From NCBI GenBank assembly GCA_965207595.1, contig CBDBMW010000009.1, forward strand, positions 76,710 through 140,709: DNA of 64,000 bases, written 5' to 3'. The notes under the pieces are model-generated. The model was not told the DNA's origin. It saw only the letters and a list, made by a program, of their open reading frames with translations, and ran no database searches. Both the position numbers and the translations under genes were made by a program. Numbering within the stretch: the stretch's first letter is position 1; each line of letters opens with the position of its first letter. This document shows positions 1,394 through 22,714 of the stretch, piece after piece. Source of the DNA: Vicinamibacterales bacterium (lineage in GTDB: Bacteria; Acidobacteriota; Vicinamibacteria; Vicinamibacterales; UBA8438).

Positions 1394-1400
1394 CCACGCG

Positions 1401-1419
1401 ACTGAGACTCAGTCTCAGT
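1401..1419. promoter_or_regulatory. Perfect 9-1-9 palindrome ACTGAGACT-C-AGTCTCAGT containing TGAGA-N5-TCTCA; Fur-box-like operator (site 1 of 4)
   Basis: Palindrome verified base by base. It has the same 7-1-7 geometry as the Fur core TGATAAT-N-ATTATCA and matches it at 10 of 14 positions. It lies between the putative -10 and the gene start. Confidence 0.5.
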
Positions 1420-1477
1420 ATCAAGGCACAGCCTCGCGCGCCCGCCGGATCGCGTGTGCGCCAGGCAAGGAGCAGTC

Positions 1478-3697
1478 ATGAGCCCAGCACGGCCCGCGCG
1501 GATCCGTCCCCTTCTCGTTCTCCTCGCCGGACTGGCGATCTCCGAACCGCTGGCGGGACAACCGGCTCCCGAACCCTGGCAGCCACCAGACCTGATCGAC
1601 GCGGTCGCGAGCCTCGGCGCCGCCGTTCACGACGGCTCGCTCTACGTCTACGGAGGCCACGTCGGCCGCGTCCACGCGCACTCGATCGAGAACATCAGCC
1701 CCGGCTTTCGGAGCGTCGCCCTGCGCCCCGACCAGGAGTGGCAGGAGCTGGCCCGCGGACCGCGACTGCAGGGAGCGGTGCTCGTCTCGGACGGAACCAC
1801 CCTGTATCGCGTCGGCGGCATGACCGCGACCAACGCAACCGCCGCCGAGCCCGAAGTGCTTCGCTCGAGTCGCTCCGCGGCCCGCTACGACGCGGCGGCG
1901 GATCGCTGGGACCCACTGCCCGACCTTCCGGCTGGACGCTCGTCGCACGACGCCGTCGTGCTCGACGGCGTGCTCTACGTGGTAGGGGGCTGGGAGCTTC
2001 GCGGCCCCGACGAGGACGCGGTGTGGGCGGACACGCTCCTGGCCCTCGATCTCGAGCGAGGCACGGAGTGGCGACAAATCCCGGCACCCTTCCTGCGGCG
2101 AGCACTGGCGGCCGGGGCGGCCGGGGGGCGCGTATACGCGTTCGGCGGCCTGACGCGGCAGCAGGGTCCCGTCCTCGCGGTCGACGTCTTGGACACGACG
2201 ACCGGCGAGTGGTCCGCCGGTCCCGCGCTACCGCCGGCCGGCAGCCTGCAGGGATTCGGTATCGGCGCCGCCAGCCACCGCGGAGGCGTCTTCGTCAGTC
2301 AAGCCGACGGCAAGGTGTACGGCCTGCGCGGCGACGGCGAGGGCTGGATCCTCACCGCGACCCTGCCCCACCCGCGCTTCATGCACCGGCTGGCCCCGTT
2401 CGGCGATCACCTCCTCGCCGTCGGCGGCGCCGCGCGCGGGGGACACCTCGCAGTGATCGACGTCGTCCCGGTGGGGCCCGACGCGGAGACCTCGTCCGAC
2501 GACGACGCCGCAGATGCGGGCCGCGATCGGGGCACCACCCGCTGGACCGGCTTCCTGGGCGGCACGCTCGGCAACGTGAGCCGTGCGGCGCGACTGCCGC
2601 TCACGTGGTCGGATTCGGAGACGGCGTGGCGGGTGACCACGGCCGGGTTCGGCCAGTCGAGCCCCGTGATCTGGGACGACACGGTCTTCGTCACCTCGCT
2701 CGAGGGCCGGCTCAAGGAGACGCTGCACATCACGGCCCTGGAGCTCGACAGCGGGGCCGAGCGCTGGCGCCGCACGTTCGACGCGGCGGAGCGGCTCGAA
2801 TGGAACGATTACGTCTCCAAGGGAGCCCCGACGCCGGCCGTCGACCGCGAGCACCTGTACGCCTTCTTCGACAGCGGCGATCTGATGGCCCTCACGCACC
2901 AGGGCGACGTCGCCTGGCATCGGGACCTGAGCGCGGAGTTCGGCACGGTCGGAGGGAACCACGGCGTCGGCAACTCCCTGCTCCTGACGGACCGCGCCGT
3001 CGTCGTGCTCCTGACGCGACGGACGTACTCCTACCTGCTGGCCGTCGACCCGGCAACGGGACGCACGCTCTGGAAGACGGATCGCGATCCCGGGGTGGCG
3101 TGGAGCACGCCCGTGCTGGCCCCGGACGGCGGCGAGATCGTGGTCAGTGCTTCCGGCCGCGTCGAGGGTTTCGATCCCGCGACCGGCGCCCGGATCTGGT
3201 CCTTCGACGGCCTGCGCGGCAACCACGTCCCGTCCCCCACCGTGACGGACGATCTCGTCATCGTCGGCGGCATGGCGGTGGCTGCGAATCTCGCCCTGCG
3301 GCGCGGACGCGCCGGCGCTCTCGACGCCGGTGACGTCGCCTGGAAGGTGGAATCCGCCTCCAGCTTCGGGTCTCCCTTCCTCTACCGGGACTGCGTCTAC
3401 TGGGTGAATCCGGCCGGCGCGGCCCGTTGCGTCGCCCCGGACTCCGGCGACGTCCACTGGACGCACCGGCTTCCCGCGTCCACGTGGGCGACGCCCCTCG
3501 GCCACGGGGACCGCGTCTACTTCTTCACGGATAGGGGGGTCACCGAGGTGTTGCGGGCGTCGGCCGCAGCGCCGGAGTCGCTCGCCACGAACCATCTGTC
3601 GGTCGATGCCCCGGTTACGGGGTTCGCTGTGGTCGACGACGCCATCGTCATCCGGGCCGGCCGCGAAGTGATTCGGGTCGGACGTCCGAAGCGCTGA
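1478..3697 (+). CDS. Secreted fusion protein: N-terminal Kelch-type beta-propeller plus C-terminal PQQ-like (BamB-like) beta-propeller
   Basis: AAGGAG lies 6 nt before the ATG at 1478. Signal-peptide-like start MSPARPARIRPLLVLLAGLAISEP. Kelch-like repeats (LYVYGG, LYRVGG, LYVVGG, VYAFGG) are followed by PQQ-like repeats (ETAWRV..., GRTLWKT, GARIWSF, GDVHWTH). Confidence 0.8.
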   Translation: MSPARPARIRPLLVLLAGLAISEPLAGQPAPEPWQPPDLIDAVASLGAAVHDGSLYVYGGHVGRVHAHSIENISPGFRSVALRPDQEWQELARGPRLQGAVLVSDGTTLYRVGGMTATNATAAEPEVLRSSRSAARYDAAADRWDPLPDLPAGRSSHDAVVLDGVLYVVGGWELRGPDEDAVWADTLLALDLERGTEWRQIPAPFLRRALAAGAAGGRVYAFGGLTRQQGPVLAVDVLDTTTGEWSAGPALPPAGSLQGFGIGAASHRGGVFVSQADGKVYGLRGDGEGWILTATLPHPRFMHRLAPFGDHLLAVGGAARGGHLAVIDVVPVGPDAETSSDDDAADAGRDRGTTRWTGFLGGTLGNVSRAARLPLTWSDSETAWRVTTAGFGQSSPVIWDDTVFVTSLEGRLKETLHITALELDSGAERWRRTFDAAERLEWNDYVSKGAPTPAVDREHLYAFFDSGDLMALTHQGDVAWHRDLSAEFGTVGGNHGVGNSLLLTDRAVVVLLTRRTYSYLLAVDPATGRTLWKTDRDPGVAWSTPVLAPDGGEIVVSASGRVEGFDPATGARIWSFDGLRGNHVPSPTVTDDLVIVGGMAVAANLALRRGRAGALDAGDVAWKVESASSFGSPFLYRDCVYWVNPAGAARCVAPDSGDVHWTHRLPASTWATPLGHGDRVYFFTDRGVTEVLRASAAAPESLATNHLSVDAPVTGFAVVDDAIVIRAGREVIRVGRPKR

Positions 3698-3823
3698 CGA
3701 CCGTCTCCGCACACCGGCTGCGGGCAGGGCGCCAACCAACGGTCCGACGCGTCGGCGGCGACGGGACCGCCGAGATCGACGGGGACCGCATCCCGATGCT
3801 CGCGGCCTGAGTTGGAGGGCAGC

Positions 3824-3988
3824 GTGAGAGAAACCACGCGCACCGTCGTCGCCGCGTCGGCGGTCGTGTTGGGCATCCACGTCGGAGCCATCGTTCTCGG
3901 CGGCGAGACCGCCCTGCCCGGCTGGCTGGTTGGGGCTCAGGCCGGCGCCGTGCTCGCCTGGGCCACGAAGCAGCCGAGGAGCCAATGA
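3824..3988 (+). CDS. Possible small two-helix membrane protein (54 aa, GTG start)
   Basis: GGAGGG lies 4 nt upstream of the GTG at 3824. Translation VRETTRTVVAASAVVLGIHVGAIVLGG...GAVLAWATKQPRSQ has high GC3. Its stop TGA 3986..3988 overlaps the next ATG (3985) as ATGA. It is below the ORF-track length cut-off. Confidence 0.3.
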   Translation: MRETTRTVVAASAVVLGIHVGAIVLGGETALPGWLVGAQAGAVLAWATKQPRSQ

Positions 3989-4292
3989 TGGCCATCAAGG
4001 CGCCCCCTGCACCGCGCTGCACAGGCACGCTGCGCGACCGAAGAGGGCCCCGCAGGCTGCACCGGTGGGAGCCCGAGTCGAGGGGAGGCAGCTACCTGGA
4101 CCCGCGACGCGAGCGGTGCCGGGCGTGCGGCGTAGTGCGCGTGTTCTCCGCCGACTGGCGGCGCATCCTGTACTACGAGGAGCCGGCGAGCTGACCATCG
4201 CAGGACGTCGGGCCGTTCTCGCCGGTGGGACCGGCACTCCTGAGTCTGGCGGCTGGGAACGTCCCAATGCAAAGGAAGGACAGGGTCCGCAC

Positions 4293-4676
4293 ATGGGCAC
4301 ACCCTCATTCATCGCGATGAACCGGTTCAAGGTCGTGCGGGGTTCGGAAGACGCATTCGAGGCGCTCTGGCGATCGCGCGAGAGCCACCTCCATGAGGTG
4401 CCGGGATTCGTTTCGTTCCGCTTGCTGCGATCTCCCGCGGGTGAGGAGTACACGCTGTTCGCGTCACACACGATCTGGAGGTCCCAGGAGGCCTTCGTGG
4501 CATGGACCCAGTCGGAGCAGTTCCGCAAGGCCCACGCGCACGCCAATGACCGCGGCACCCAGGCCGCCTATCTCGGCCATCCCGAATTCGAGGGCTTCCA
4601 CGTCGTGCACCAGCTCGACGCCGACCGACCGGTCGCCGCGCCGGCCGCGGTCGCGTCGGCGGCGGGAGTGACGTGA
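4293..4676 (+). CDS. IsdG/HmoB-type heme-degrading monooxygenase (ABM domain)
   Basis: ATG at 4293 within ORF 3930..4676. The peptide carries an Asn-Trp-His triad pattern (AMNRF, HTIWRSQEAF, FRKAH). The gene sits directly before hmuTUV. Confidence 0.7.
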   Translation: MGTPSFIAMNRFKVVRGSEDAFEALWRSRESHLHEVPGFVSFRLLRSPAGEEYTLFASHTIWRSQEAFVAWTQSEQFRKAHAHANDRGTQAAYLGHPEFEGFHVVHQLDADRPVAAPAAVASAAGVT

Positions 4677-5569
4677 TGCGGCGCGGCGCGCGACGGTCGA
4701 TGGGTGGGACCGCGCGATTGGGACACGCCGGGTTGGCCCTCCTCGCCGTCCTCGGCGCGCACTGCCGCGGCGGCGAGCAGCGGGACGACGGGATCATCGC
4801 GATCGGCGGCGACATCACCGAGATCGTCTACGAGCTCGGCGCGGGCGACCGCCTGATGGCCGTCGACACGACGAGCGTGTACCCGCCGGAGGCTCTCGAG
4901 ACGAAGCCGAACGTGGGGTACATGCGCCAGCTCTCCCCCGAGGGTGTGCTCTCGGTCGGAGGCCGGCACGTGCTCGCCAGCGAGGCGGCCGGACCTCCGG
5001 AGACGATCGCGGCGCTCCAGGCATCGTCCCTGGACTACGTGGTCATCCCGGACGATCCGAGCCCGGAGGGCATCGTGGCGAAGGTGCGGGCCGTCGCCGC
5101 GGCCCTCGGCGAGCAGGCCAAGGGAGAGGAGCTCGCGGCGCGGGTCGCGTCCCGGCTCGAGGACCTGGCGGAGAAGCGAACCCGCATCGAAGGCCCCCCG
5201 GTGCGCGTGCTGTTCGTGCTCGCCGTCCGCAACGGGCGCGCCATCGTCGGCGGCGAGGGCTCGAGCGCCGAGGCGGTTATCGAACTCGCGGGCGGCGTCA
5301 ACGCGGTGACCGGCGTGGTCGACTACCGGCCGCTCGGCGACGAGGCGCTCGTGGCGCTGGCCCCCGACGCCATCCTGACCATGAGCCGCACCAGCGAGCG
5401 GCACACCCTCGAGGAACTCGACACCCTCGCCGGCATCAAGAGCACGCCGGCCATGCGCAACGGCCGCATGTACCAGATGGACGGTCAGCGCCTGCTCGGA
5501 TTCGGTTCACGGACGCCGGACGCGGCGGCCGAATTGATGGACCTGCTCTACGGTCCGATCTCCAAATGA
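4676..5569 (+). CDS. hmuT: Heme/hemin ABC transporter periplasmic substrate-binding protein
   Basis: ORF 4673..5569. The GTGATG start overlaps the previous stop. The layout is that of a class III periplasmic binding protein (IIAIGGDITEIVYELG..., LSPEGVLS, APDAILT). Confidence 0.85.
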   Translation: MRRGARRSMGGTARLGHAGLALLAVLGAHCRGGEQRDDGIIAIGGDITEIVYELGAGDRLMAVDTTSVYPPEALETKPNVGYMRQLSPEGVLSVGGRHVLASEAAGPPETIAALQASSLDYVVIPDDPSPEGIVAKVRAVAAALGEQAKGEELAARVASRLEDLAEKRTRIEGPPVRVLFVLAVRNGRAIVGGEGSSAEAVIELAGGVNAVTGVVDYRPLGDEALVALAPDAILTMSRTSERHTLEELDTLAGIKSTPAMRNGRMYQMDGQRLLGFGSRTPDAAAELMDLLYGPISK

Positions 5570-6657
5570 GTCCGGCTGCGCCGGGAGCCTTGGCGGGGAC
5601 ACTGCCGGCGCCGCACGCGACGGCGCGGCGAGCGTCGGCCACCGTGCTGCTGGTGGTGTCGCCGTGCGTCCTGGCGGGCACCATGATCGCGTCGCTGGCG
5701 GTCGGGCCGACGGGCATCTCCCTCGACGCGCTGCCTGCCGTGCTGTGGGCGATGGCGGGGGGCACGGTCGACGCGGAGATCGCAACCGAGCGACTGGTCC
5801 TGCTCGACCTGCGGCTGCCGCGCACGCTGATCGGGCTCTTCGTCGGTGCGTCGCTCGCCCTGGCGGGAGCGATGATGCAGGGGATGTTCCGCAACCCGCT
5901 CGCCGACCCCGGCCTCATCGGGGTCTCCGCGGGGGCAGCCCTCGCCGCCATCTCCACCATCGCGCTGGGCGACACGGTGCTCGCGTTCTGGCCGGCGACC
6001 CTGGGGGTGCACGCGTTGCCCGTGGCCGCCTTCCTGGGCGGGCTGGCGACCACGCTGCTCCTCGTCCTCGTGGCCAACCGCTCCGGCGGCCTCCCGATCG
6101 GCACGCTGCTTCTGGCCGGGATCGCGTTCGGGGCCCTCGCCAACGCCGGGTCCGGCCTCATCGCCTACGTGAGCAACGATCGCGAGCTGCGCGACCTGAC
6201 GCTCTGGTCCCTCGGCTCGCTGAGCGGCGCGAACTGGGACAAGGTGACCGCCATCGTCCCCTTCGCGCTCCTGCTAGCCGTGTTCACACCCGCGATGGTC
6301 CGGGCGCTCAACGGCCTCGTGCTCGGCGAAGCCGAGGCCTTCCACCTCGGAGTCAGCGTCGAGCGAGCCAAGCGCATCCTGGTGACGCTGACGGCGGCGG
6401 CGGTCGGCGCGGCGGTGGCCGTGGCCGGCGTGATCGGGTTCGTCGGCATCGTCGTGCCGCACTTCGCGCGCTTGATCACCGGCCCCGATCACCGCTTCGT
6501 CCTTCCGGCCTCCGCGCTCTTCGGCGGAGTCATCGTACTGACCGCCGACGTCATCGCGCGCCTCATCGTGCAGCCGGCCGAGCTGCCGATCGGCATCGTG
6601 ATGGCCGCCATCGGCGCGCCGGTGTTCCTGCATCTGGTAATCCGGCGCGGGATCTGA
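5566..6657 (+). CDS. hmuU: Heme ABC transporter permease (FecCD family)
   Basis: ATGA overlap with hmuT. Typical FecCD peptide (LLDLRLPRTLIGLFVGASLALAGAMMQG...GIVMAAIGAPVFLHL). Confidence 0.9.
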   Translation: MSPAAPGALAGTLPAPHATARRASATVLLVVSPCVLAGTMIASLAVGPTGISLDALPAVLWAMAGGTVDAEIATERLVLLDLRLPRTLIGLFVGASLALAGAMMQGMFRNPLADPGLIGVSAGAALAAISTIALGDTVLAFWPATLGVHALPVAAFLGGLATTLLLVLVANRSGGLPIGTLLLAGIAFGALANAGSGLIAYVSNDRELRDLTLWSLGSLSGANWDKVTAIVPFALLLAVFTPAMVRALNGLVLGEAEAFHLGVSVERAKRILVTLTAAAVGAAVAVAGVIGFVGIVVPHFARLITGPDHRFVLPASALFGGVIVLTADVIARLIVQPAELPIGIVMAAIGAPVFLHLVIRRGI

Positions 6658-6675
6658 CCTCCGGGGCCGGACCGC

Positions 6676-7536
6676 ATGCTGCAAACCCGCTCGCTCAGCT
6701 ACGCGGTCGGCGGCCGGGCGCTCGTCGAGAAGGCCTCTCTCGACGTCAGACCCGGTTCCCTCACCGTCGTCATCGGACCGAACGGCGCCGGCAAGACCAC
6801 GCTGGTGCGCATGCTCTCCGGCGAGCTGCGGCCGACGGCAGGCCGCCTGACGTTGGACGGCCGACCGTTGCGGGCGTTCTCCGCCAGGGAACTGGCCCTC
6901 CGCCGCGCAGTCGTCCCGCAGGCGGCGCAACTGACCTTCCCGTTCACGGTCGAGGAAGTCGTGCTGCTCGGCCGGACGGTCCCCGGCCTCGACGATCCCG
7001 GGCCCGCCCGCGCCCTCTGCCGCACCGCGCTCGAGCGCGTCGGCTTGCTCGATCTCGCCGGCCGGAGCTACACCGCCCTCTCCGGCGGGGAGCGCCAGCG
7101 CGTGCACCTGGCCCGGGCCTTCGCCCAGCTGGGCGACTGGCGCCGCGACGACGGCACGACCCTCCTGTTCCTGGACGAGCCGACGTCCAACCTCGACCTT
7201 GCCCACCAGCTCTCGATCCTGCGGGAGGTCCGGAAGGACGTCGCGGAGGGTCTTGCCGTCGTGGCCGTGCTGCACGACCTCAATCTCGCATCGTGCTTCG
7301 CCGATCGAATCATCCTGATGAGCGCCGGCCGGATCGCCCGGGTCGGCCCACCCCCCGAGATCTTCCGTGATGAGGTGCTGTCGACGGTCTTCGGCTGCGT
7401 GGTGCGGGCCAATGTCACCCCTGCTCCGGACGTGCCGTTCGTGCTGCCGCAGGCATGCGGGGAAACCGGACGCCGCGGCACCCCGACTCCGGCGCCGCGG
7501 CGTCCGGCTTCGTCAGGCGCTACCCCGAACACCTGA
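6676..7536 (+). CDS. hmuV: Heme ABC transporter ATP-binding protein
   Basis: Walker A GPNGAGKTT, signature LSGGERQR and Walker B LLFLDEPTS. Confidence 0.9.
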   Translation: MLQTRSLSYAVGGRALVEKASLDVRPGSLTVVIGPNGAGKTTLVRMLSGELRPTAGRLTLDGRPLRAFSARELALRRAVVPQAAQLTFPFTVEEVVLLGRTVPGLDDPGPARALCRTALERVGLLDLAGRSYTALSGGERQRVHLARAFAQLGDWRRDDGTTLLFLDEPTSNLDLAHQLSILREVRKDVAEGLAVVAVLHDLNLASCFADRIILMSAGRIARVGPPPEIFRDEVLSTVFGCVVRANVTPAPDVPFVLPQACGETGRRGTPTPAPRRPASSGATPNT

Positions 7537-7596
7537 CGGCCACGCCCTTTGCGCTTGATCGACGGGCGCGGTCTGGGTCACAATGCGCGCTGATAC

Positions 7597-7611
7597 TGAG
7601 ACGCATTCTCA
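7597..7611. promoter_or_regulatory. TGAGA-CGCAT-TCTCA inverted repeat, Fur-box-like operator (site 2 of 4)
   Basis: Coordinates verified against ORF 7455. The wider context GATACTGAGACGCATTCTC matches 13 of 19 positions of the classical Fur box GATAATGATAATCATTATC. It lies 76-90 nt upstream of the CbiX-like gene. Confidence 0.45.
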
Positions 7612-7686
7612 AGACATGTCGGGGGGACCGGTCGGGTGCACACGCCCACGGGCTCCCACGCAGCGGCGCTCCCGTGAACGAGAGAG

Positions 7687-8601
7687 GTGAGGAAGACAGT
7701 GGCGATACGAGCTTGGACGCGGTTGCTGCCTGCCCTGTTGCTCGTGCTGCTGGCGCCCGGCGTCGCCGGGGCCCAGGGCATCCTCCTGCTCGCTCACGGC
7801 GGCCGTGCCGACTGGAATCAGGAAGTCCTGGGCCTGGCGGATCGTGTCTCCTCGAGCGTGCCTGTCGAGGTGGCGTTCGGCATGGCGAACAAGCGGACCA
7901 TCCAGGAAGCACTGGGCCGGCTGGCGGAACACGACGTCACGAGCATCGTCGCGGTTCCGCTGTTCATCTCGTCGCACAGCAGCGTGATGCGGGCCACGGA
8001 GTACCTGCTGGGGAGCCGCGATGAAGCGCCGCCGCAGATGGAAGCCTTTGCCCGCATGGCCGCCCGGCGCGAGTCGGAGGGCGACGCGGCCAGCGACACC
8101 GGCTTCGACTGGACCTCGCCACTGGAGCCGGGAGTACCGATCTCGGTGGGACGGGCCCTCGACGGCCACCCTCTCGTCGCCGCGATCCTGATCTCCCGCG
8201 CCCTGGATGTCAGCGAGGCCCCCGAAGACGAGGTCGTCGTGGTGGTGGCGCACGGACCGAGCTCGGAAGCGGACAACGAGCTCTGGCTGGGACACATGGC
8301 TGTCCTGGTCGACGAAATGCGCAGCCGTACGGGCTTCAGCCGCATCGAGCACCTGACGGTCCGGGACGACGCGTCGGAACCGGTCCGCGAGCAGGCCACC
8401 GAGGAGTTGCGCGCCGTGGTCGGGGCCGCCATCGATGAGGGGAGCTCGGTGGTCATCGTACCGTTGCTCCTGTCCTACGGCGGCATCGAAGTCGGCATCC
8501 GGCGGAGGCTCGAGGGCTTGTCGTACCGCATGGCCCGTCAGGCCCTGCTGCCGGACGAGCGGCTGGCCGAGTGGGTGCTGATGCAGGTGGCCGCGCGGTA
8601 G
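7687..8601 (+). CDS. Secreted two-domain CbiX/SirB-like class II chelatase-fold protein
   Basis: Signal peptide LLPALLLVLLAPGVAGAQG. Two CbiX-like halves start at ILLLAHGGRADWN and VVVVVAHGPSSEADN, with VAVPLFIS and IVPLLLSYG strands. An alternative GTG start at 7699 has a better AGGAAG spacer. Confidence 0.7.
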   Translation: MRKTVAIRAWTRLLPALLLVLLAPGVAGAQGILLLAHGGRADWNQEVLGLADRVSSSVPVEVAFGMANKRTIQEALGRLAEHDVTSIVAVPLFISSHSSVMRATEYLLGSRDEAPPQMEAFARMAARRESEGDAASDTGFDWTSPLEPGVPISVGRALDGHPLVAAILISRALDVSEAPEDEVVVVVAHGPSSEADNELWLGHMAVLVDEMRSRTGFSRIEHLTVRDDASEPVREQATEELRAVVGAAIDEGSSVVIVPLLLSYGGIEVGIRRRLEGLSYRMARQALLPDERLAEWVLMQVAAR

Positions 8602-8667
8602 CGGCGCCCGCCGGAGCGGCCCCGCCCTCCACGCATTTCCTGCGCGCTGAAGAACGACACGGAAGAC

Positions 8668-8710
8668 GGGCGCCCCCGCGGATGGCTTGAGGAACCGCGC
8701 AGGGGCGCCC
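8668..8710 (+). terminator. GC-rich hairpin (9 bp + 2-nt bulge + 5 bp, 13-nt loop) between the CbiX-like gene and the first receptor
   Basis: GGGCGCCCCCGCGG...CCGCGCAGGGGCGCCC paired by hand. There is no U-tract, so it could be an attenuator or stabiliser rather than a terminator. Confidence 0.3.
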
Positions 8711-8764
8711 GGTGAGCACCGGCCCCGCATGGTGCGGCGCCGGAAACCCCGAGGAGTATAGGCA

Positions 8765-11116
8765 ATGCAGTTCCCACCCTGCACCGCCGCGGGCCGCCAC
8801 GCGGCTTCGGCGGCGGTCGTAGCCTTCGCGGCGCTGGGTCTCGCCCTGTCGGCCCCGGCCGCGCTGGCGCAGCCGGCCGAGCCGGCCCAAACGGCGGCTG
8901 GCGCCCAGGCGGCAACCGACCCGGTATCCCCCGGCGGCCAGGCAACCGGCGGTCCGGACGACCCTCTCACCTTTCTCGACTCCGTGACGGTGACCGCCAC
9001 CCTGCGGCCGGCGCCGGTCCGTGATACCCCCGGGATGGTGTCGGTGATCGACGACGTGGCCATCGAGGAACGGCTCGTGCAGAACATGGCCGATCTCGTC
9101 AAGTACGAGCCCGGCGTCTACGTCGAGAACAACGTGACCCGCCTCGGCCTCAACGGGTTCAACATCCGCGGCATCGGCGGCAACCGGGTGATGACCCAGG
9201 TAGACGGCGTCCAGACCTCCGAGCAATTCGACTTCGGGCCCTTCAACGTCCATCAGGTCTCGCTCGACGTCGACACGCTGAAGTCGGTCGAGATCGTCCG
9301 CAGCGCGAACTCGGCCCTCTACGGCAGCGACGCCCTGGGCGGCGTCGTGTCGCTCTTCACGAAGGACCCCGGCGACTACCTCCGGGGACGGCGCTTCCAC
9401 GCCGGCGCCAAGACGACGTGGGACGGGCGCGCCGATGGGTTGAGCGGCAACCTCTCGCTCGCCGCCGGCACCGAGCGCTTCCAGGCGTCGCTGTTCGCCA
9501 GCGCCACCCGGGGCAACGAAATCCGCAACAAGGGGACGGTGGAGACGGCCGACGACACCCGGACGGCGCCCAATCCCCAGGACCTCGTCGGCTCGCAGAT
9601 GCTGGCCAAGATCGTCTTCAACGCCTCGCCCGGCAACATGCTGCGGGCTTCCGCGGAGGTCTACGACACCCGCGTCGAGACGGCGGTCCTGTCGCAGCAG
9701 GGATCCTTGCAGTTCAGCCCGACGTTCGGCATCGACACGACGGACTACGACGCGGTCGACACCCAGGATCGGCTGCGGCTGTCGATCGACCAGACGCTCG
9801 TCGACCGCGGCGGCTTCGACCAGCTCTCGTGGCGCATCTACGGCCAACGGAACGACACCTCGCAGGTCGTCGACGATGCCCGCACGACGTTCGGCTTCGG
9901 GCCGCCGATGGGGTCGCTGCGCCATGGCACCGTCGACTTCGACCAGGCCGGGTACGGCACCTCGGCGCAGGGTCAGAAGTGGCTCGGCGACCCGGACGGC
10001 GGCGTCCTGTTCAGCTTCGGCGCCGCCTACAAGACGGATCACTTCGACGTCCTGCGGGATGCGCGCGAGGTCAACGCTCGCTCCGGCGCCGTGATCCCGT
10101 CCCGGCTGATCTATCCCACGAAGTACTTCCCGGAGAGCGACGTCGCCGAGGCCGGAGCGTATCTGCAGGGCGAGATCCAGCTCGGTCGTCTCACGCTGGT
10201 GCCGGGCGTGCGCTACGACCACTTCACCCTCGACGCCGACCAGGCTGACTCCGTCTTCCTGGCGAGCCTCAACCCGGTGCCCGCCGACTTCTCGGCGGAC
10301 GCCGTCTCGCCGAAGTTCGGCATCGCGGCGCGCCTGAACGACGTCGTCACCGTGCACGCGCAGTATGCGGGCGGCTTCCGGGCGCCGCCCTACAGCAACA
10401 TCAACACCGGCTTCACGAACTTCCGCGGCGGCTACACGACGCTGCCGAATGCGGCGCTGCGCGCGGAGACGAGCGACAACGTCGAGGTCGGCATCCGCTC
10501 CGCGTTCGCCCGCGCCAGCTTCGACCTGACGACGTTCCTCAACTACTACGACGATTTTATCGAGCTGACCAGCCTCGGCTTCAATCCCCGAACGAGGCTG
10601 CTCGAGTTCCAGAGCCAGAACCTCGAGCAGGCGGAGATCAGGGGGGTCGAGATGCGCGGCGAGGCCTACCTCAGCGACAGCGTGACCCTGCGCGGGAGCT
10701 ACGCCCACATCCGCGGCGTCGCCATCACGAAGGACGTCACGGTGCCGCCGCTGGCGCAGGAAACGCCGCTCGGATCCGTCGCCCCGAACGAGGGCGTCCT
10801 CGGTCTCCGCTACGTCCGGCCCTCCGGCCGCTGGGGCGGCGAGGTCTCCGTCCGCATGGTCGAGTCGTACCAGCAGGTCGCAATAGACGGGGTCGACGAC
10901 GATCAGTTCTCGCCGGACGGGTACGCGATCGTCGACCTCATCGGGTTCGCCTCGCTCATGGAGGACCTGACGTTCCGGCTCGGCCTGCTGAACCTGACCG
11001 ACGCCAAGTACTTCGAGTGGTGGAACGTGCGGGGACGGCCGGCGGACGACCCGGTCATCGACCGCTACTCGAGCCCGGGAATCAGCCTGGTCGCCTCACT
11101 GGGGTACGACTGGTAG
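8765..11116 (+). CDS. TonB-dependent heme/hemoglobin-type outer-membrane receptor (copy 1)
   Basis: Signal peptide, then a plug (DSVTVTATLRPAPVRDTPGMVSVID...). FRAP box and NPNL-like box (GFRAPPYS...LPNAALRAE). C-terminal SLGYDW. GAGGAG lies before the ATG. Confidence 0.9.
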   Translation: MQFPPCTAAGRHAASAAVVAFAALGLALSAPAALAQPAEPAQTAAGAQAATDPVSPGGQATGGPDDPLTFLDSVTVTATLRPAPVRDTPGMVSVIDDVAIEERLVQNMADLVKYEPGVYVENNVTRLGLNGFNIRGIGGNRVMTQVDGVQTSEQFDFGPFNVHQVSLDVDTLKSVEIVRSANSALYGSDALGGVVSLFTKDPGDYLRGRRFHAGAKTTWDGRADGLSGNLSLAAGTERFQASLFASATRGNEIRNKGTVETADDTRTAPNPQDLVGSQMLAKIVFNASPGNMLRASAEVYDTRVETAVLSQQGSLQFSPTFGIDTTDYDAVDTQDRLRLSIDQTLVDRGGFDQLSWRIYGQRNDTSQVVDDARTTFGFGPPMGSLRHGTVDFDQAGYGTSAQGQKWLGDPDGGVLFSFGAAYKTDHFDVLRDAREVNARSGAVIPSRLIYPTKYFPESDVAEAGAYLQGEIQLGRLTLVPGVRYDHFTLDADQADSVFLASLNPVPADFSADAVSPKFGIAARLNDVVTVHAQYAGGFRAPPYSNINTGFTNFRGGYTTLPNAALRAETSDNVEVGIRSAFARASFDLTTFLNYYDDFIELTSLGFNPRTRLLEFQSQNLEQAEIRGVEMRGEAYLSDSVTLRGSYAHIRGVAITKDVTVPPLAQETPLGSVAPNEGVLGLRYVRPSGRWGGEVSVRMVESYQQVAIDGVDDDQFSPDGYAIVDLIGFASLMEDLTFRLGLLNLTDAKYFEWWNVRGRPADDPVIDRYSSPGISLVASLGYDW

Positions 11117-11122
11117 CAACCC

Positions 11123-11155
11123 GCCGCCGGCGCGACTCGACGTCGCGCCGGCGGC
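11123..11155 (+). terminator. Perfect 14-bp GC stem / 5-nt loop hairpin between the two receptor paralogues
   Basis: GCCGCCGGCGCGAC-TCGAC-GTCGCGCCGGCGGC starts 7 nt after the TAG of copy 1. Coordinates verified against the 11194 start. Confidence 0.5.
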
Positions 11156-11193
11156 GTCTGGCCAACCAGCGGCGACCTGTAGGACCATGAAGC

Positions 11194-13644
11194 ATGCACC
11201 TCGCCGCCCGCCCGCACGCGCCGCACCGTGCCCGGCGCCGTTCCGGCCTTTGCCTGGTCCGCCTCGCAGCGGTCGCGGTCTCCCTGACCATCCCGCTGCC
11301 TGACGGAGCCCCAGGAGTCTGGGCCGCAGAACCGGCGACGCGCGACGCTCGCGCCCGCGCAGACTCCCACCGCGCCCGTCAGGGCGCGCGGGCGCAGGAC
11401 CGGACCGGCACGGAGACCGACGACGCCCGACCGGCCGATGCTCCCCCCGTCGCGCCGACGCCGGACGCTCCGCCACCGGATGACGCCGTCTCGACCACCG
11501 ATCCGCTGACGTTTCTCGATTCCGTGACCGTCACCGCGACGCTTCGCCCAGCCCCCGTGCGGGAGACGCCGGGCGTGGTCTCGGTCATCGACGAGGAGGC
11601 GATCCAGGAACGACTGATCCAGAACGCGGCCGACCTCGTGAAGTACGAGCCGGGCGTCTACGTCGAGAGCAACGTCACCCGGCTGGGCCTCAACGGCTTC
11701 AACATCCGCGGAATCGGCGGGAATCGCGTCCTCACCCGCATCGACGGCGTCGAGACGTCGGAGCAGTTCGACTTCGGGCCCTTCAACGTCCACCAGGTGT
11801 CGTTCGATGTCGATGCCCTGAAGTCGGTCGAGATCGTGCGCAGCGCGAATTCCGCCCTCTACGGCAGCGACGCGCTCGGCGGCGTCGTCTCGCTGTTCAC
11901 GAAGGATCCCGCGGACTACCTCCGCGGCCGGCGCTTCCATGCCGGGGCCAAGACCACGTGGGACGGCCGCGCGGACACCCTGAGCGGCAACGCGGCCCTG
12001 GCCGGGGGCGGGGAGCGGCTGCAGGCATCGCTCTTCGCCAGCACCTCCCGCGGAGGGGAGATTCGGAACCAGGGGACCGTCCACACGCAGGACGCCACCC
12101 GCACGGCGCCCAACCCGCAGCAGCTCGCCGCCTCCCAGGCGCTGGCCAAGGTCGTGTTCACCGCCGCCCCCGGCAACGTGCTGCGGGCGGCGGCGGAGGT
12201 CTACGACACGCGCGTCGAGACCGAGGTCCTCTCCCAGCAGGGCCTCGTCGAGTTCGGGCCCGCGATCGGCATCGACACCAAGGACGTCGACGCAGTCGAC
12301 ACCCAGGACCGCCTCCGGCTCTCGCTCGATCACACGCTCGCGGGGCGCGTCGGGCTCGATCTGCTCACCTGGCGCGTCCACCGCCAGCGCAGCGACACCG
12401 CGCAGGTGGTCGACGACCGCCGCTCGATCCGCGGCTTCGGGTCGCCGGTCGAGGCGGCACGGCACGGCACGGTCGACTTCGACCAGGCGGGCGCCGGCGG
12501 CTCGGTGCAGGCGCAGAGGCGGCTCGGGGACGCCGACGGCGGCATGCTGCTCACGTTCGGGGCCAGCTACAAGACCGACCACTTCGACGTCCTGCGCGAC
12601 GCCGTCGAGATCGACGTCGCCACCGGAGCCGAGATCCCGCCGCGGCAGACCTACCCGACCAAGTACTTCCCCGAGAGCGACGTGGTCGAGGCGGGATCCT
12701 ACGTCCAGGGCGAGATCCAGCTCGGCCGGCTCACGCTCGTGCCGGGGGTGCGCTACGACCGGTTCACGCTCGACGCCGACCAGGACGACCCGATCTTCCT
12801 GGCGAGCTTCAACCCGGAGCCGGCGGACTTCGCCGCGCACGCCGTATCCCCGAAGGTGGGCGCCGCCGCGCGCCTGACGGACGTCGTCACCGTGCACGCC
12901 CGCTACGCGGCGGGGTTCCGCGCGCCGCCGTACAGCACCGTCAACACCGGCTTCACGAGCTTCAGCGCCGGCTACACGACACTGCCGAACCCGAGCCTGC
13001 GGGCCGAGAAGAGCGACAACCTGGAGGTCGGCGTCCGCACCGCCTTCGCGCGGGCGAGCCTCGACGTCACCGCGTTCGTCAACCGCTACGACGACTTCAT
13101 CGAGCTGGCCAGCGTCGGCATCAATTCCGCGACCCGGCTGCTCGAGTTCCAGAGCCGCAACGTGGAGCGGGCGGAGATTGCGGGCCTCGAGGTGCGCGGC
13201 GAGGCCTACCTGACCGGAACCCTGATGCTGCGCGGCAGCTATGCGCGGATCGACGGGGTGTCGCTCTCGACCACCGCCTCCGGCTCGCCCTTCGGCGAGG
13301 CGCCGCTCGGCTCCATCGCCCCGAGCGAGGGCCAGGTCGGCATCCGCTACGTCCATCCCCGCGGCCGCTGGGGAGGGGAGCTCTCCGCGCGGCTGGTGGA
13401 GGGCTACGGCCAGTCGGATGCCGGCGACAACCAGTTCGCGCCCGACGCCTACCAGGTCGTCGACCTCGTGGGCTTCGCATCGCTCCGCGACGCGCTCACC
13501 CTGCGTCTGGGGCTGCTCAATCTGACGGACGCAAGGTACTTCGAGTGGTGGAACGTGCGGGGACGCCTTCCCGGCGACCCGGCCATCGACCGCTACTCCA
13601 GCCCGGGGACGAGCGCCGTCGCGTCCCTGGCGTACGACTGGTAG
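11194..13644 (+). CDS. TonB-dependent heme/hemoglobin-type outer-membrane receptor (copy 2, tandem paralogue)
   Basis: Long identical runs with copy 1 (DPLTFLDSVTVTATLRPAPVR, LGLNGFNIRGIGGNRV, SANSALYGSDALGGVVSLFTKDP). FRAP and LPNPSL boxes. C-terminal SLAYDW. Confidence 0.9.
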   Translation: MHLAARPHAPHRARRRSGLCLVRLAAVAVSLTIPLPDGAPGVWAAEPATRDARARADSHRARQGARAQDRTGTETDDARPADAPPVAPTPDAPPPDDAVSTTDPLTFLDSVTVTATLRPAPVRETPGVVSVIDEEAIQERLIQNAADLVKYEPGVYVESNVTRLGLNGFNIRGIGGNRVLTRIDGVETSEQFDFGPFNVHQVSFDVDALKSVEIVRSANSALYGSDALGGVVSLFTKDPADYLRGRRFHAGAKTTWDGRADTLSGNAALAGGGERLQASLFASTSRGGEIRNQGTVHTQDATRTAPNPQQLAASQALAKVVFTAAPGNVLRAAAEVYDTRVETEVLSQQGLVEFGPAIGIDTKDVDAVDTQDRLRLSLDHTLAGRVGLDLLTWRVHRQRSDTAQVVDDRRSIRGFGSPVEAARHGTVDFDQAGAGGSVQAQRRLGDADGGMLLTFGASYKTDHFDVLRDAVEIDVATGAEIPPRQTYPTKYFPESDVVEAGSYVQGEIQLGRLTLVPGVRYDRFTLDADQDDPIFLASFNPEPADFAAHAVSPKVGAAARLTDVVTVHARYAAGFRAPPYSTVNTGFTSFSAGYTTLPNPSLRAEKSDNLEVGVRTAFARASLDVTAFVNRYDDFIELASVGINSATRLLEFQSRNVERAEIAGLEVRGEAYLTGTLMLRGSYARIDGVSLSTTASGSPFGEAPLGSIAPSEGQVGIRYVHPRGRWGGELSARLVEGYGQSDAGDNQFAPDAYQVVDLVGFASLRDALTLRLGLLNLTDARYFEWWNVRGRLPGDPAIDRYSSPGTSAVASLAYDW

Positions 13645-13796
13645 CCGAGCTCGCCGCGGACCTGCGCGGAAACCCGGCCGTTGGCTGGAAGGCCGCCGGC
13701 CGCTACCGCGGCGAGTACGCGCCGTCCGCGGCTCCCTGCGGGAGCGCTGCGGGCCGTAGGGGCGCCTGAGCGACGCTGCGGGCGGGGCCGAGCGCG

Positions 13797-15425
13797 TCAG
13801 CCCGCGGCGGCCGGGAAGTAGCGGCGCAGCGTCGCCGCCCCCGGCCCCGGGGTCAGCCGCGACACGACGAACATCAGCAGCGACGAGCCGATGAGCATCG
13901 GCAGGACGGGCATGTAGCCGAGCACCGCGGTGCCGCCGGGCGTGCGCGTGATCAGGTCCAGCCCGCCGAGGGTCCAGATCGGGACCACGGTGCCCGGCGG
14001 CGGCGCCGGAACGACCGCCTGCAGGATCGCCACCGCCGTCATCGTCGCCGCCGTCCACAGCACGACGGCGAGCGCGCCCCACTTCGTGCTGCCCCGCCAG
14101 AAGAGCGCCGCCACGAGGAGCGGCAGCAGCGTCGTGAACCCGGAGAAGGCGTACTGCACCGCGATGCCGAAGATGCCGGGCGGTGCCTGGAGCGCGATCG
14201 CGTAGGCCACGAGCGCGATCAGCACCACGAACAGCCGCCCCGTCTGTACCTGCACCGCGGAGCCGAAGCGCGACTTGCCGCCGTAGTAGGCGAAGACGTC
14301 CTCGGTGAACATCGTCGACAGGGCCAGGATCTGCGAGTCGCTGGCCATCACCGCGGCCATGATGCCCGCGCCGAGCAGCCCCGCCAGCCACAGCGGCGCG
14401 TAGTGCTCCAGCATCAGGATGATGACGTCGTCGCCGGCCGCCGCGCGCTGCAGCTCGGCCGTCTCCGCCGGCGTCCGCCCGCCCGGGTCCGCCGCGAGCT
14501 CCGCCCGCGCCTCCAGCTTCGACTCGATGCCCGGAACGTCGGTCATCGCGTTGGCGGCCAGGCCGAGGAACGTGCAGGGCAACCAGATGGCCAGGATGCA
14601 GAGGGGGTAGAAGATGACCGTCTTTCGGAACTGCCCCATCCGGCGCGCGGTGAGACAGAAGATGGAGATGTGCGGGAACATGATCGTCGACAGCGGGATC
14701 AGCATGTAGCTGAAGAAGAACCGCGGCGAGATCTGCTCCCGCGTCAGGAGCGGCGCCGACTCGGGATTGCCCGCGAGGCGCTCCATCGCGGCCGGGAACC
14801 CGCCGATGCTGACGCCGATGAAGAGGATGGCGGCGGCCCCGAACGTGAGGAACAGCACGGTCTGGAACGTGTTGACCCACGCCGTGCCCCGCATGCCGCC
14901 GAAGAACACGTAGCTCATGACGACGGCGGCCACGATCAGCCCCCCGAACCAGTACGGCACCACGCCCCCGCTGACCGCGTTCAGCACGGTGCCGCCCCCC
15001 ATCACCGCGATCACGATGTAGGGCACGAGCAGCGTCGCCTGGACGGCGAAGATGGCGGTTCCGATGTGCCCGCACTCCCATCGGTCGCGGTACATCTGCA
15101 CCGGCGTCATGAAGCCGTGGCGCTTGCCGAGCGCCCACACGCGCGTCCCGAACAGGTAGAGCGTGATCGGAATCAGGAACGCCGACGACGACCCCATCAG
15201 GCCGTAGGTCACCACGCCGTTCGCGAACGCGTGGCCGGCCGACCCGAGGATGGTGAACGCCGTCATGTTGGTGCCGAAGAGCGACAGCAGGAAGACGTAC
15301 TGGCCGAGCGAGCGGTTGGCGAGGAAGTAGCCCTCGGCGCCGCCGCCCCCCGGACGCCGGAACGCGAAGATGCCGATGTAGAGGACGACGCAGAGATACA
15401 GGAAGACCACCAGCGCGGGGATCAC
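13797..15425 (-). CDS. Sodium:solute symporter family (SSF) transporter
   Basis: GTG at 15425 ([24 protein letters not shown]...YFLANRSLG), about 13 hydrophobic segments. The longer ORF to 15821 is an Arg-rich extension. The GTGA overlaps the upstream DUF3311 stop. Confidence 0.85.
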
Positions 15426-22529: not shown

Positions 22530-22674
22530 GGTTCCCTCCTGCTCGCCGATGCCCGAATCTCCAGAATAGCAGGAGACGTCGCGCATCCGGCCCGCTTCCC
22601 GCCCCGCCCGGGGCGGGCGCCTTGCGACGAGCGACGGTGGCGGTTCCGGGTGCGGTTGGACGGAGACCACGGGA

Positions 22675-22689
22675 TGAGATTGCGTCTCA
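22675..22689. promoter_or_regulatory. TGAGA-TTGCG-TCTCA inverted repeat, Fur-box-like operator (site 3 of 4)
   Basis: Lies in the divergent intergenic region, 26 nt upstream of the bfd ATG and 146 nt upstream of the receptor start. Coordinates verified against the 22715 ATG. Confidence 0.45.
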
Positions 22690-22714
22690 ATCTCGGACGG
22701 GATAGGATCGCGCG

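Follow-up and report, generated by a model that had tools for sequence, protein, structure and literature searches.

Between the genes of a haem importer and two genes for TonB-dependent receptors of the haem type, the 64-kb stretch of Vicinamibacterales DNA analyzed here (contig CBDBMW010000009.1; ‘the window’, all 64,000 nucleotides of it) carries a gene for an exported protein with the fold of the class II chelatases. We call its product the chelatase-fold protein, and its relatives the chelatase-fold family. There is good support for the view that this protein works in the periplasm, under iron control, as a partner of haem-type TonB receptors, and incoming haem is probably what it handles there. 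The reading that we favor, with a probability of a little under one half (roughly 0.45), is that it is a periplasmic haem acceptor: it would take haem at the receptor and pass it to HmuT–HmuUV, for degradation by HmuQ. An earlier note on this DNA, made from the sequence alone, had offered two possibilities, a heme-binding shuttle of this kind or a chelatase that runs in reverse and releases iron from haem. Both touch on processes that are partly understood: the release of haem iron without oxygen, and the route of haem from outer-membrane receptor to inner-membrane importer.

The chelatase-fold protein matches Pfam CbiX (PF01903) over its N-terminal half only (residues 40–168, E = 5.5e-13, 49.6 bits against a cutoff of 22), and does not match the CbiK family, PF06180. 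An AlphaFold2 model, computed from an alignment of 67 sequences, shows two successive beta/alpha domains, the same beta–alpha order of secondary structure being repeated twice (pLDDT 93.1, pTM 0.87). Two Rossmann-like domains with a cleft between them are the architecture of the class II chelatase superfamily (CbiX/SirB/CbiK/HemH), to which the protein belongs. Foldseek comparison of the model with the PDB gives Bacillus subtilis SirB as the top match (E = 1.6e-8, target TM-score 0.70, about 285 aligned columns), followed by DR2241, the periplasmic CbiK of Desulfovibrio vulgaris (CbiK-P), Porphyromonas gingivalis FetB, CbiK and the coproporphyrin ferrochelatase CpfC, all six with a probability of 1.00. 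Searched against the PDB as a single sequence, the protein finds only weak matches to CfbA (E = 0.012), and a profile of the family is required to go further. That profile finds CfbA/CbiX-S at E = 6e-11 and SirB at 1e-6, and FetB (structure 9B86) only at 0.25, for which reason we place the protein in the CbiX/SirB lineage of the two-domain class II fold rather than in the CbiK lineage. The earlier note had read the protein as exported and composed of two CbiX/SirB-like halves, and had proposed structure prediction as a check; the description stands, and the predicted fold agrees with it.

The best structural and profile matches, SirB and archaeal CfbA/CbiX-S, are both cytoplasmic sirohydrochlorin chelatases. 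Unlike them, the chelatase-fold protein is exported, is encoded in an uptake locus, and has neighbors for uptake rather than for the biosynthesis of sirohaem, B12 or F430. It differs from them, too, in having Met where SirB has Glu43, in an equivalent of SirB His76 that is conserved in only 52% of the family, in an extra loop of about 40 residues, and in missing the NCBIfam chelatase cutoffs (43.5 bits for CfbA and 37.9 bits for PRK00923, where both cutoffs are 120).

As called, the open reading frame (ORF) starts at a GTG codon and encodes 304 amino acids (Table 1). A GTG at 7699, which would give 300 amino acids, is the likelier true start, because AGGAAG precedes this codon and the length of a database protein with 99% identity (P0001) is 300 residues; we nonetheless number residues by the 304-residue version throughout. 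Residues 1–29, MRKTVAIRAWTRLLPALLLVLLAPGVAGA, are followed by QG and form a putative signal peptide that ends in an AGA–Q cleavage site, with two to three basic residues in the n-region and a hydrophobic core (Kyte–Doolittle mean over 11 residues, 2.98). No twin-arginine motif was found in this N-terminus, and the first strand of the fold (GILLLAHGG) begins two residues past the predicted cleavage site. Comparable extensions with a hydrophobic core precede the AHG motif in 110 of 150 representatives of clusters formed at 50% identity (median length 33 amino acids). Nine of these 110 have a lipobox-like motif; the other 40 representatives are mostly fragments. Going by these predicted signals, export is shown to be a trait of the whole family.

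Natural fusions point to the same compartment. Five proteins (P0124, P0135, P0203, P0249 and P0260) consist of a signal peptide, the chelatase fold, a short linker, a TonB box, a plug and a barrel, in that order, and a sixth, truncated protein (P0130) has the same arrangement. One of these genes lies directly after a FUR-family gene, and another is divergent from the genes for a DtxR-type repressor and a ferritin. A further fusion is encoded on a complete Vicinamibacterales chromosome (OZ253664.1; L028:14918-17998), some 4 kb downstream of a paralogue that stands alone, and its barrel is about 70% identical to that of receptor 1 of the window. We considered whether the fusions might be artefacts of gene calling, and rejected this: there are five distinct cases from independent samples in addition to the one on the complete chromosome. 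In the latter, moreover, the linker retains the DDPLTFLESVTVSAT motif, which stands before the plug in receptors 1 and 2 of the window (TonB-box motif DDPLTFL(D/E)SVTV(T/S)AT), and a second signal peptide is absent. The N-terminus and TonB box of TonB-dependent transporters face the periplasm. The order of the parts in the fusions therefore puts the chelatase fold in the periplasm, tethered at the exit side of the receptor.

Export and fusion together speak against another reading, which the Pfam match favors, namely that the protein is an ordinary biosynthetic sirohydrochlorin chelatase of the SirB/CbiX kind, adjacent to haem-uptake genes by chance. One source does label a homologue ‘sirohydrochlorin ferrochelatase’. 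We nevertheless consider this reading very unlikely: the protein falls short of every NCBIfam chelatase model, its metal triad departs from the known one (see below), and, of the loci examined, only one (L052) has a gene for sirohaem or B12 synthesis, hemD, next to the chelatase-fold gene.

The locus itself is laid out in Table 1. The chelatase-fold gene is placed between hmuQ–hmuTUV and two paralogous receptor genes, both of which exceed the cutoff of TIGR01786, the model of the haemoglobin/transferrin/lactoferrin receptor family; receptor 1 also passes, barely, the haem/haemoglobin model TIGR01785 (317.3 bits, cutoff 316.85). Each receptor carries a FRAP box (GFRAPPYS) and an NPNL-like box (LPNAAL or LPNPSL). 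In classical haem receptors a His is typically found between these boxes. Inspected by eye, receptors 1 and 2 have none, so that their assignment to haem as substrate comes from the model scores and the context only.

Upstream of the chelatase-fold gene is a palindrome that resembles a Fur operator more closely than any other site in the window; shuffled sequences give 0.005 such sites. Predicted operators of this kind are conserved. In 888 kb of related loci there are 38 Fur-like sites with at least 13 matches, compared with about two expected. They occur about 150 nucleotides upstream of stand-alone orthologues (L001–L005), and upstream of the Kelch gene in three-gene modules (L006, L014, L018, L026 and L041), and they place the gene in a predicted Fur regulon. 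The surroundings sketched in the earlier note—hmuTUV on one side, heme-type receptors on the other, a Fur-like box in front and a cytoplasmic IsdG-type oxygenase nearby—are thus confirmed by the domain and family models and by the operator scan. Besides the overlapping palindromes in front of the Kelch/PQQ gene, a third copy (22676-22694, 12/19 matches) is found in the window directly upstream of a minus-strand ORF (20004-22670) that encodes another TonB-receptor-like protein, of 888 amino acids. The copies may mark a local regulon of the Fur type.

Table 1. The chelatase-fold gene and the features around it, in coordinates of the window
Feature	Position	Strand	Evidence
Overlapping Fur-like palindromes before Kelch/PQQ gene	1398..1422	.	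12-13/19 matches
Kelch + PQQ/BamB-like double beta-propeller protein, exported	1454..3697	+	Pfam Kelch_1, PQQ_2
hmuQ, IsdG/ABM-family haem-degrading protein, cytoplasmic	4293..4676	+	NCBIfam HmuQ equivalog 150.2 bits (cutoff 130), Pfam ABM
hmuT-like periplasmic binding protein	4673..5569	+	Pfam Peripla_BP_2, E 9.5e-25
hmuU-like FecCD permease	5566..6657	+	Pfam FecCD, E 8.6e-86
hmuV-like ABC ATPase	6676..7536	+	Pfam ABC_tran, E 7e-27
Fur-like operator upstream of chelatase-fold gene	7592..7610	.	GATACTGAGACGCATTCTC, 14/19 Fur consensus
Exported CbiX/SirB-lineage class II chelatase-fold gene	7687..8601	+	304 amino acids from GTG 7687
Predicted Sec-type signal peptide, residues 1-29, cut AGA/QG	7687..7773	+	read from sequence
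TonB-dependent receptor 1, haem/haemoglobin type	8765..11116	+	plug + barrel; TIGR01786 342.6 bits (cutoff 323.75)
TonB-dependent receptor 2, paralogue of receptor 1	11194..13644	+	plug + barrel; TIGR01786 336 bits, over cutoff

Relatives of the protein are numerous. A word-indexed search returned more than 1162, and the best 120 of them are 71–99% identical to the window protein, about 300 residues long, and mostly without a name. An exhaustive search gave 1022 clusters (50% identity) at E values up to 0.001, and 135 at values up to 1e-30. We surveyed 65 genome loci with flanks of 10 kb, 42 of them from Acidobacteriota. A TonB receptor, detected by the hidden Markov model of the plug, occurs within 10 kb of the chelatase-fold gene in 36 of the 65, mostly adjoining it and on the same strand. 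An orthologous receptor, 65–73% identical to those of the window, adjoins the gene in about 25 of the 42 Acidobacteriota loci, and in about 18 a homologue of the Kelch/PQQ protein (65–96% identity) adjoins the receptor. In the Vicinamibacterales the recurrent order is Kelch/PQQ protein, haem-type receptor, chelatase-fold gene, the Kelch/PQQ gene usually being the first of the module; its protein finds only generic Kelch and BamB proteins in the PDB.

Other lineages have the gene in other company. In Thermoanaerobaculia and Candidatus Multivorans it lies downstream of an hmuTUV-like importer (Peripla_BP_2/FecCD/ABC), with a Ppx gene in between. In four Balneolaceae loci, those of Fodinibius roseus and Gracilimonas mengyeensis among them, the gene follows those for a receptor and HmuY, in that order, and in a Methylococcaceae contig (L060) the order is receptor, TonB, HemS/ChuX, ExbB, ExbD, chelatase-fold gene. 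In the hut loci of Vibrio, the slot after exbD, which the gene occupies in L060, is often that of a haem-binding protein. By tblastn, hmuTUV and hmuQ are absent from most of the 10-kb flanks of orthologues: hmuU/V were found in seven Thermoanaerobaculia, Multivorans and unclassified Acidobacteria loci, and hmuT and hmuQ in the window only. We therefore reject hmuTUV and hmuQ as conserved partners; most orthologous loci comprise the Kelch/PQQ, receptor and chelatase-fold genes alone. The earlier note had asked whether the gene co-occurs with hmuTUV and receptor genes across genomes. For TonB haem receptors it does, to the point of fusion; for the importer it generally does not.

Conservation identifies a site, probably in the cleft, that is peculiar to the family. 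Among the 150 representatives, to which all the percentages refer, His37 is retained in 92%, His189 and Arg171 in 93%, Trp43 in 98%, Trp200 in 96%, Ser95, Ser96 and Ser98 in 88–97%, Arg226, Asp227 and Asp228 in 82–91%, and Met66 in 85%. His97 is retained in 52% (Tyr in 22%). Complete homologues from the genome loci, which span about five phyla, are identical at 14 of 16 positions compared, with a handful of single substitutions; positions 97 and 264 vary. Acidobacteriota have His at position 97; in Bacteroidota and Balneolaceae the residue there is Tyr, Phe or His, and in gammaproteobacterial and unassigned contigs it may be Glu, Asp, Ser or His.

Aligned with SirB, His37 corresponds to His10, Met66 to Glu43, and His189 to Arg134. 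Aligned with the symmetric site of CfbA, His37 corresponds to His9, and His189 occupies the position of the second His9. The metal triad of SirB (His10/Glu43/His76) is thus incomplete: the Glu43 position is Met in 85% of the representatives and in all homologues from genome loci, and His97, the equivalent of His76, is present in the window protein and in about half of the family. The earlier note had made conservation of the catalytic His and Glu a check on its proposal, and in this the first His of the triad is kept and the Glu is not. The known triad is altered, yet His is retained at both pseudo-symmetric positions. In the alignment, the His-rich loop of CfbA is the counterpart of the extra loop (residues 110–150), which is rich in His and Met in members from Bacteroidota but not in the window protein, where it contains no His. 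According to a paper on the engineering of SirB, none of the natural monomeric class II chelatases that are known has all four active-site His (PMC11301274). Members of the family from Acidobacteriota have three of the four, and the family provides a natural monomeric class II chelatase fold with His at both symmetric positions.

Class II chelatases that are exported have been found before in loci for the uptake of haem or iron, and the statement in the earlier note that this class normally acts in the cytoplasm has to be read with these exceptions in mind. IhtB/FetB of P. gingivalis is an exported class II chelatase of known structure (9B86) that inserts Co and Mn, and for which no reverse activity on haemin was found (PMC13065792). 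Both it and CbiK-P of D. vulgaris (2XVX/2XVZ) bind haem, and they have been proposed to be reverse ferrochelatases or haem carriers (PMC13065792, PMC12094164); the operon of IhtB/FetB includes a receptor and an ABC importer (PMC12094164, PMC13065792). With the chelatase-fold protein they have in common that they are exported and that their genes accompany those for a TonB receptor, an iron/haem ABC importer, or both. Foldseek matches to the two are at E = 1e-5 and 7e-5, with TM-scores lower than that of SirB. IhtB/FetB and CbiK-P belong, however, to the CbiK branch, and the chelatase-fold family has a site of its own (His37, Met66, His189). FetB, further, is a surface lipoprotein whereas the chelatase-fold protein has a plain Sec signal, by prediction, and receptor fusions, which occur in the chelatase-fold family, are not described for CbiK-type proteins in the papers cited. 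The likeness is one of a common way of working, not of common membership. With its own conserved site, wide distribution and receptor fusions, the chelatase-fold family is a separate recruitment from the CbiX/SirB lineage. We found no published description of it in a search of full-text literature, whose coverage leaves out many subscription papers, so that the absence of one is unproven.

On the reading that we favor, the protein would be expressed under Fur control and exported by the Sec pathway to the periplasm, where it would take haem leaving the TonB receptor and hold it in the cleft between the two domains, probably lined by the conserved His37, Met66, His189, Trp43, Trp200, Arg171 and Arg226. 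In the window locus, haem would then be handed to HmuT–HmuUV, and degraded by HmuQ in the cytoplasm. Ligation may be by His and Met, by analogy with IsdE-type haem-binding proteins. Proteins of Cluster A (the HmuT and IsdE type) are likewise two-lobed and periplasmic, and bind haem in an interdomain cleft; the parallel is one of analogy only, as the chelatase-fold protein, unlike these, has no Peripla_BP_2 match, and a separate HmuT is encoded in the window. We rank binding and hand-over slightly above catalysis for several reasons. Both of the characterized exported class II chelatases bind haem, and removal of iron has been shown for neither; FetB, in particular, did not run in reverse on haemin (PMC13065792). 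Met stands in place of the metal-binding Glu, and His/Met, along with His/Tyr, is a usual ligation in bacterial proteins that bind haem (PMC6200708). The second His, at position 97, is not conserved across the family, this position often being His or Tyr. And genes for the degradation of haem in the cytoplasm share the loci.

Not everything fits this reading. Near-invariance of about fourteen polar residues across some five phyla is a pattern that suits an enzyme better than a carrier, and the 10-kb flanks of most orthologous modules lack an importer of haem for the inner membrane, which suits processing in the periplasm better than hand-over. Three close orthologues (L001, L003 and L005) have no receptor within 10 kb, yet keep their Fur-like boxes. 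The same residues are conserved in Flavobacteriaceae relatives whose genes lie between those for a heavy-metal P-type ATPase and DUF3347; in two loci from metagenome-assembled genomes (MAGs; L047:5564-12269 and L053:1923-6795) the neighbors are CusB-like, HMA/HMBD P-type ATPase, DUF3347 and DUF4440 genes, and the proteins have long loops rich in His and Met. A His-rich relative, P0226 (L070–L072), has its gene downstream of SCO1/SenC, COX1 and CtaA (haem A synthase), at a distance of a few genes. Two of these three loci also have a MerR and copper-type ATPase pair near the gene, and the protein has a His-rich insert right behind the AHG motif; given this context, it may take part in the biogenesis of oxidases or the handling of copper. 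Yet another relative, between a redoxin gene and a TonB gene and downstream of two receptor genes, has no evident fit with haem. The CusB/P-type ATPase clusters, the His/Met-rich loops and the SCO1/COX1/CtaA contexts point to the handling of free metal.

The first two of these observations lead to the close rival of the haem acceptor: that the protein is a periplasmic haem dechelatase or metal-exchange enzyme. It would bind haem that comes from the receptor, the His37 site accepting the metal and His189 donating a proton. Either Fe(II) would be released and protoporphyrin left, or the metal would be swapped, and iron would enter the cell by a general ferrous transporter. His at both pseudo-symmetric positions, together with the conserved Glu61, Glu182, Asp227 and Asp228, favors such a mechanism: of the two His pairs of CfbA, one holds the metal and the other serves as base, and the R134H change in SirB, which puts His at the position of His189, is described as raising Ni-chelatase activity (PMC11301274). 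FetB and periplasmic CbiK, moreover, retain forward chelatase activity; the minimal conserved module, receptor plus chelatase-fold protein, includes no dedicated inner-membrane importer; and some relatives have metal-efflux neighborhoods and loops rich in His and Met. Other points count against it. The known metal triad is incomplete, with Met at the Glu43 position and the second His not conserved, FetB gives no precedent for reversal on haemin, and no source of reductant is evident in the locus. The window locus and L060, besides, encode the cytoplasmic haem-degrading proteins HmuQ and HemS, and so haem evidently enters these cells intact. We regard a dechelatase or exchange enzyme as possible and the less likely of the two.

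The earlier note had drawn a parallel with HmuS of Bacteroidota, and part of it holds. HmuS is thought to remove the iron of haem on the periplasmic side (PMC10100974), and this accepted model gives periplasm-directed removal of iron a precedent. It is, like the chelatase-fold protein, a chelatase-family protein encoded in a haem-uptake operon (hmuYRSTUV) with HmuY and HmuR, and the Balneolaceae gene, after receptor and HmuY, occupies the same slot as HmuS in the hmu operon. The proteins themselves are unrelated: HmuS is a large, membrane-anchored class I chelatase of the CobN type, with no similarity of fold to class II (PMC13227078). The six-domain architecture of CobN/ChlH, with its membrane anchors, is not found in the chelatase-fold protein, which has 304 residues and a CbiX match only. 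A bolder formulation, which we think less likely than not, is that a widespread periplasmic family derived from CbiX/SirB works as a haem dechelatase that needs no oxygen, or as an enzyme that exchanges the metal of porphyrins, docked at, and sometimes fused to, the periplasmic end of receptors. Monomeric, with His at both pseudo-symmetric CfbA positions and a conserved Met, it would be the second independent recruitment of class II chelatases to haem uptake, in Acidobacteriota, Balneolaceae, Bacteroidota, Gammaproteobacteria and Aquificales-labelled MAGs.

The remaining observations suggest that the protein might have nothing to do with porphyrin, and might instead use the remnant of the chelatase metal site to bind metal ions, as a periplasmic metallochaperone or acceptor. 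The receptor could then pass iron or some other metal to it, much as TbpA passes iron to FbpA, and in other lineages it could buffer copper or other metals. This would account for the Flavobacteriaceae homologues between P-type ATPase (HMA + HMBD) and DUF3347 genes with a CusB-like gene adjoining, for the His/Met-rich loops of many members, for the surroundings of P0226, and for the receptors scoring highest on the haemoglobin/transferrin/lactoferrin model. We think it improbable all the same. Neighbors specific for haem (HmuY, HemS, HmuQ and HmuTUV) recur in four lineages, the loop of the window protein is without His, and the fold, with its conserved Trp and Arg, would suit a cleft for tetrapyrroles. 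Uptake of cobalamin or other corrinoids we reject, as there is no riboswitch in the window or upstream of the receptor–HmuY–chelatase operons. The one cobalamin riboswitch (L044:11337-11475) is downstream of the chelatase-fold gene and before metE, to which it belongs.

The family adds to a short list. The known candidates for oxygen-free release of haem iron, and for the fate of haem between receptor and importer, are HmuS of Bacteroidota and the CbiK-type IhtB/FetB; the chelatase-fold family would be a third, and a phylogenetically broad one, abundant in soil and marine Acidobacteriota. Its natural fusions at the TonB-box end of receptors are an unusually direct clue to site of action and partner, and the culturable carriers Fodinibius roseus and Gracilimonas mengyeensis make its function testable.

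Some minor observations complete the account. No Rfam family exceeds its threshold in the window, where a cobalamin riboswitch is accordingly absent. A scan of positions 3600–14000 for sigma-70 promoters found none, and its lone terminator-like match is below the expectation from shuffled sequence. Clustering of stop-to-stop ORFs for further conserved neighbors was uninformative, owing to merged frames and antisense ORFs in DNA of 71% GC. Finally, four distant relatives of 1100–1600 amino acids (P0185, P0213, P0222 and P0199) have tandem chelatase-fold and FmdE-like domains, the latter with a CVCGSFAFRAM motif, and end in copper-amine-oxidase N-terminal, NosD or GLUG-type domains. The first of these C-terminal domains is typical of wall-associated proteins of Gram-positive bacteria, and the architecture suggests an extracellular version of the chelatase-fold family.

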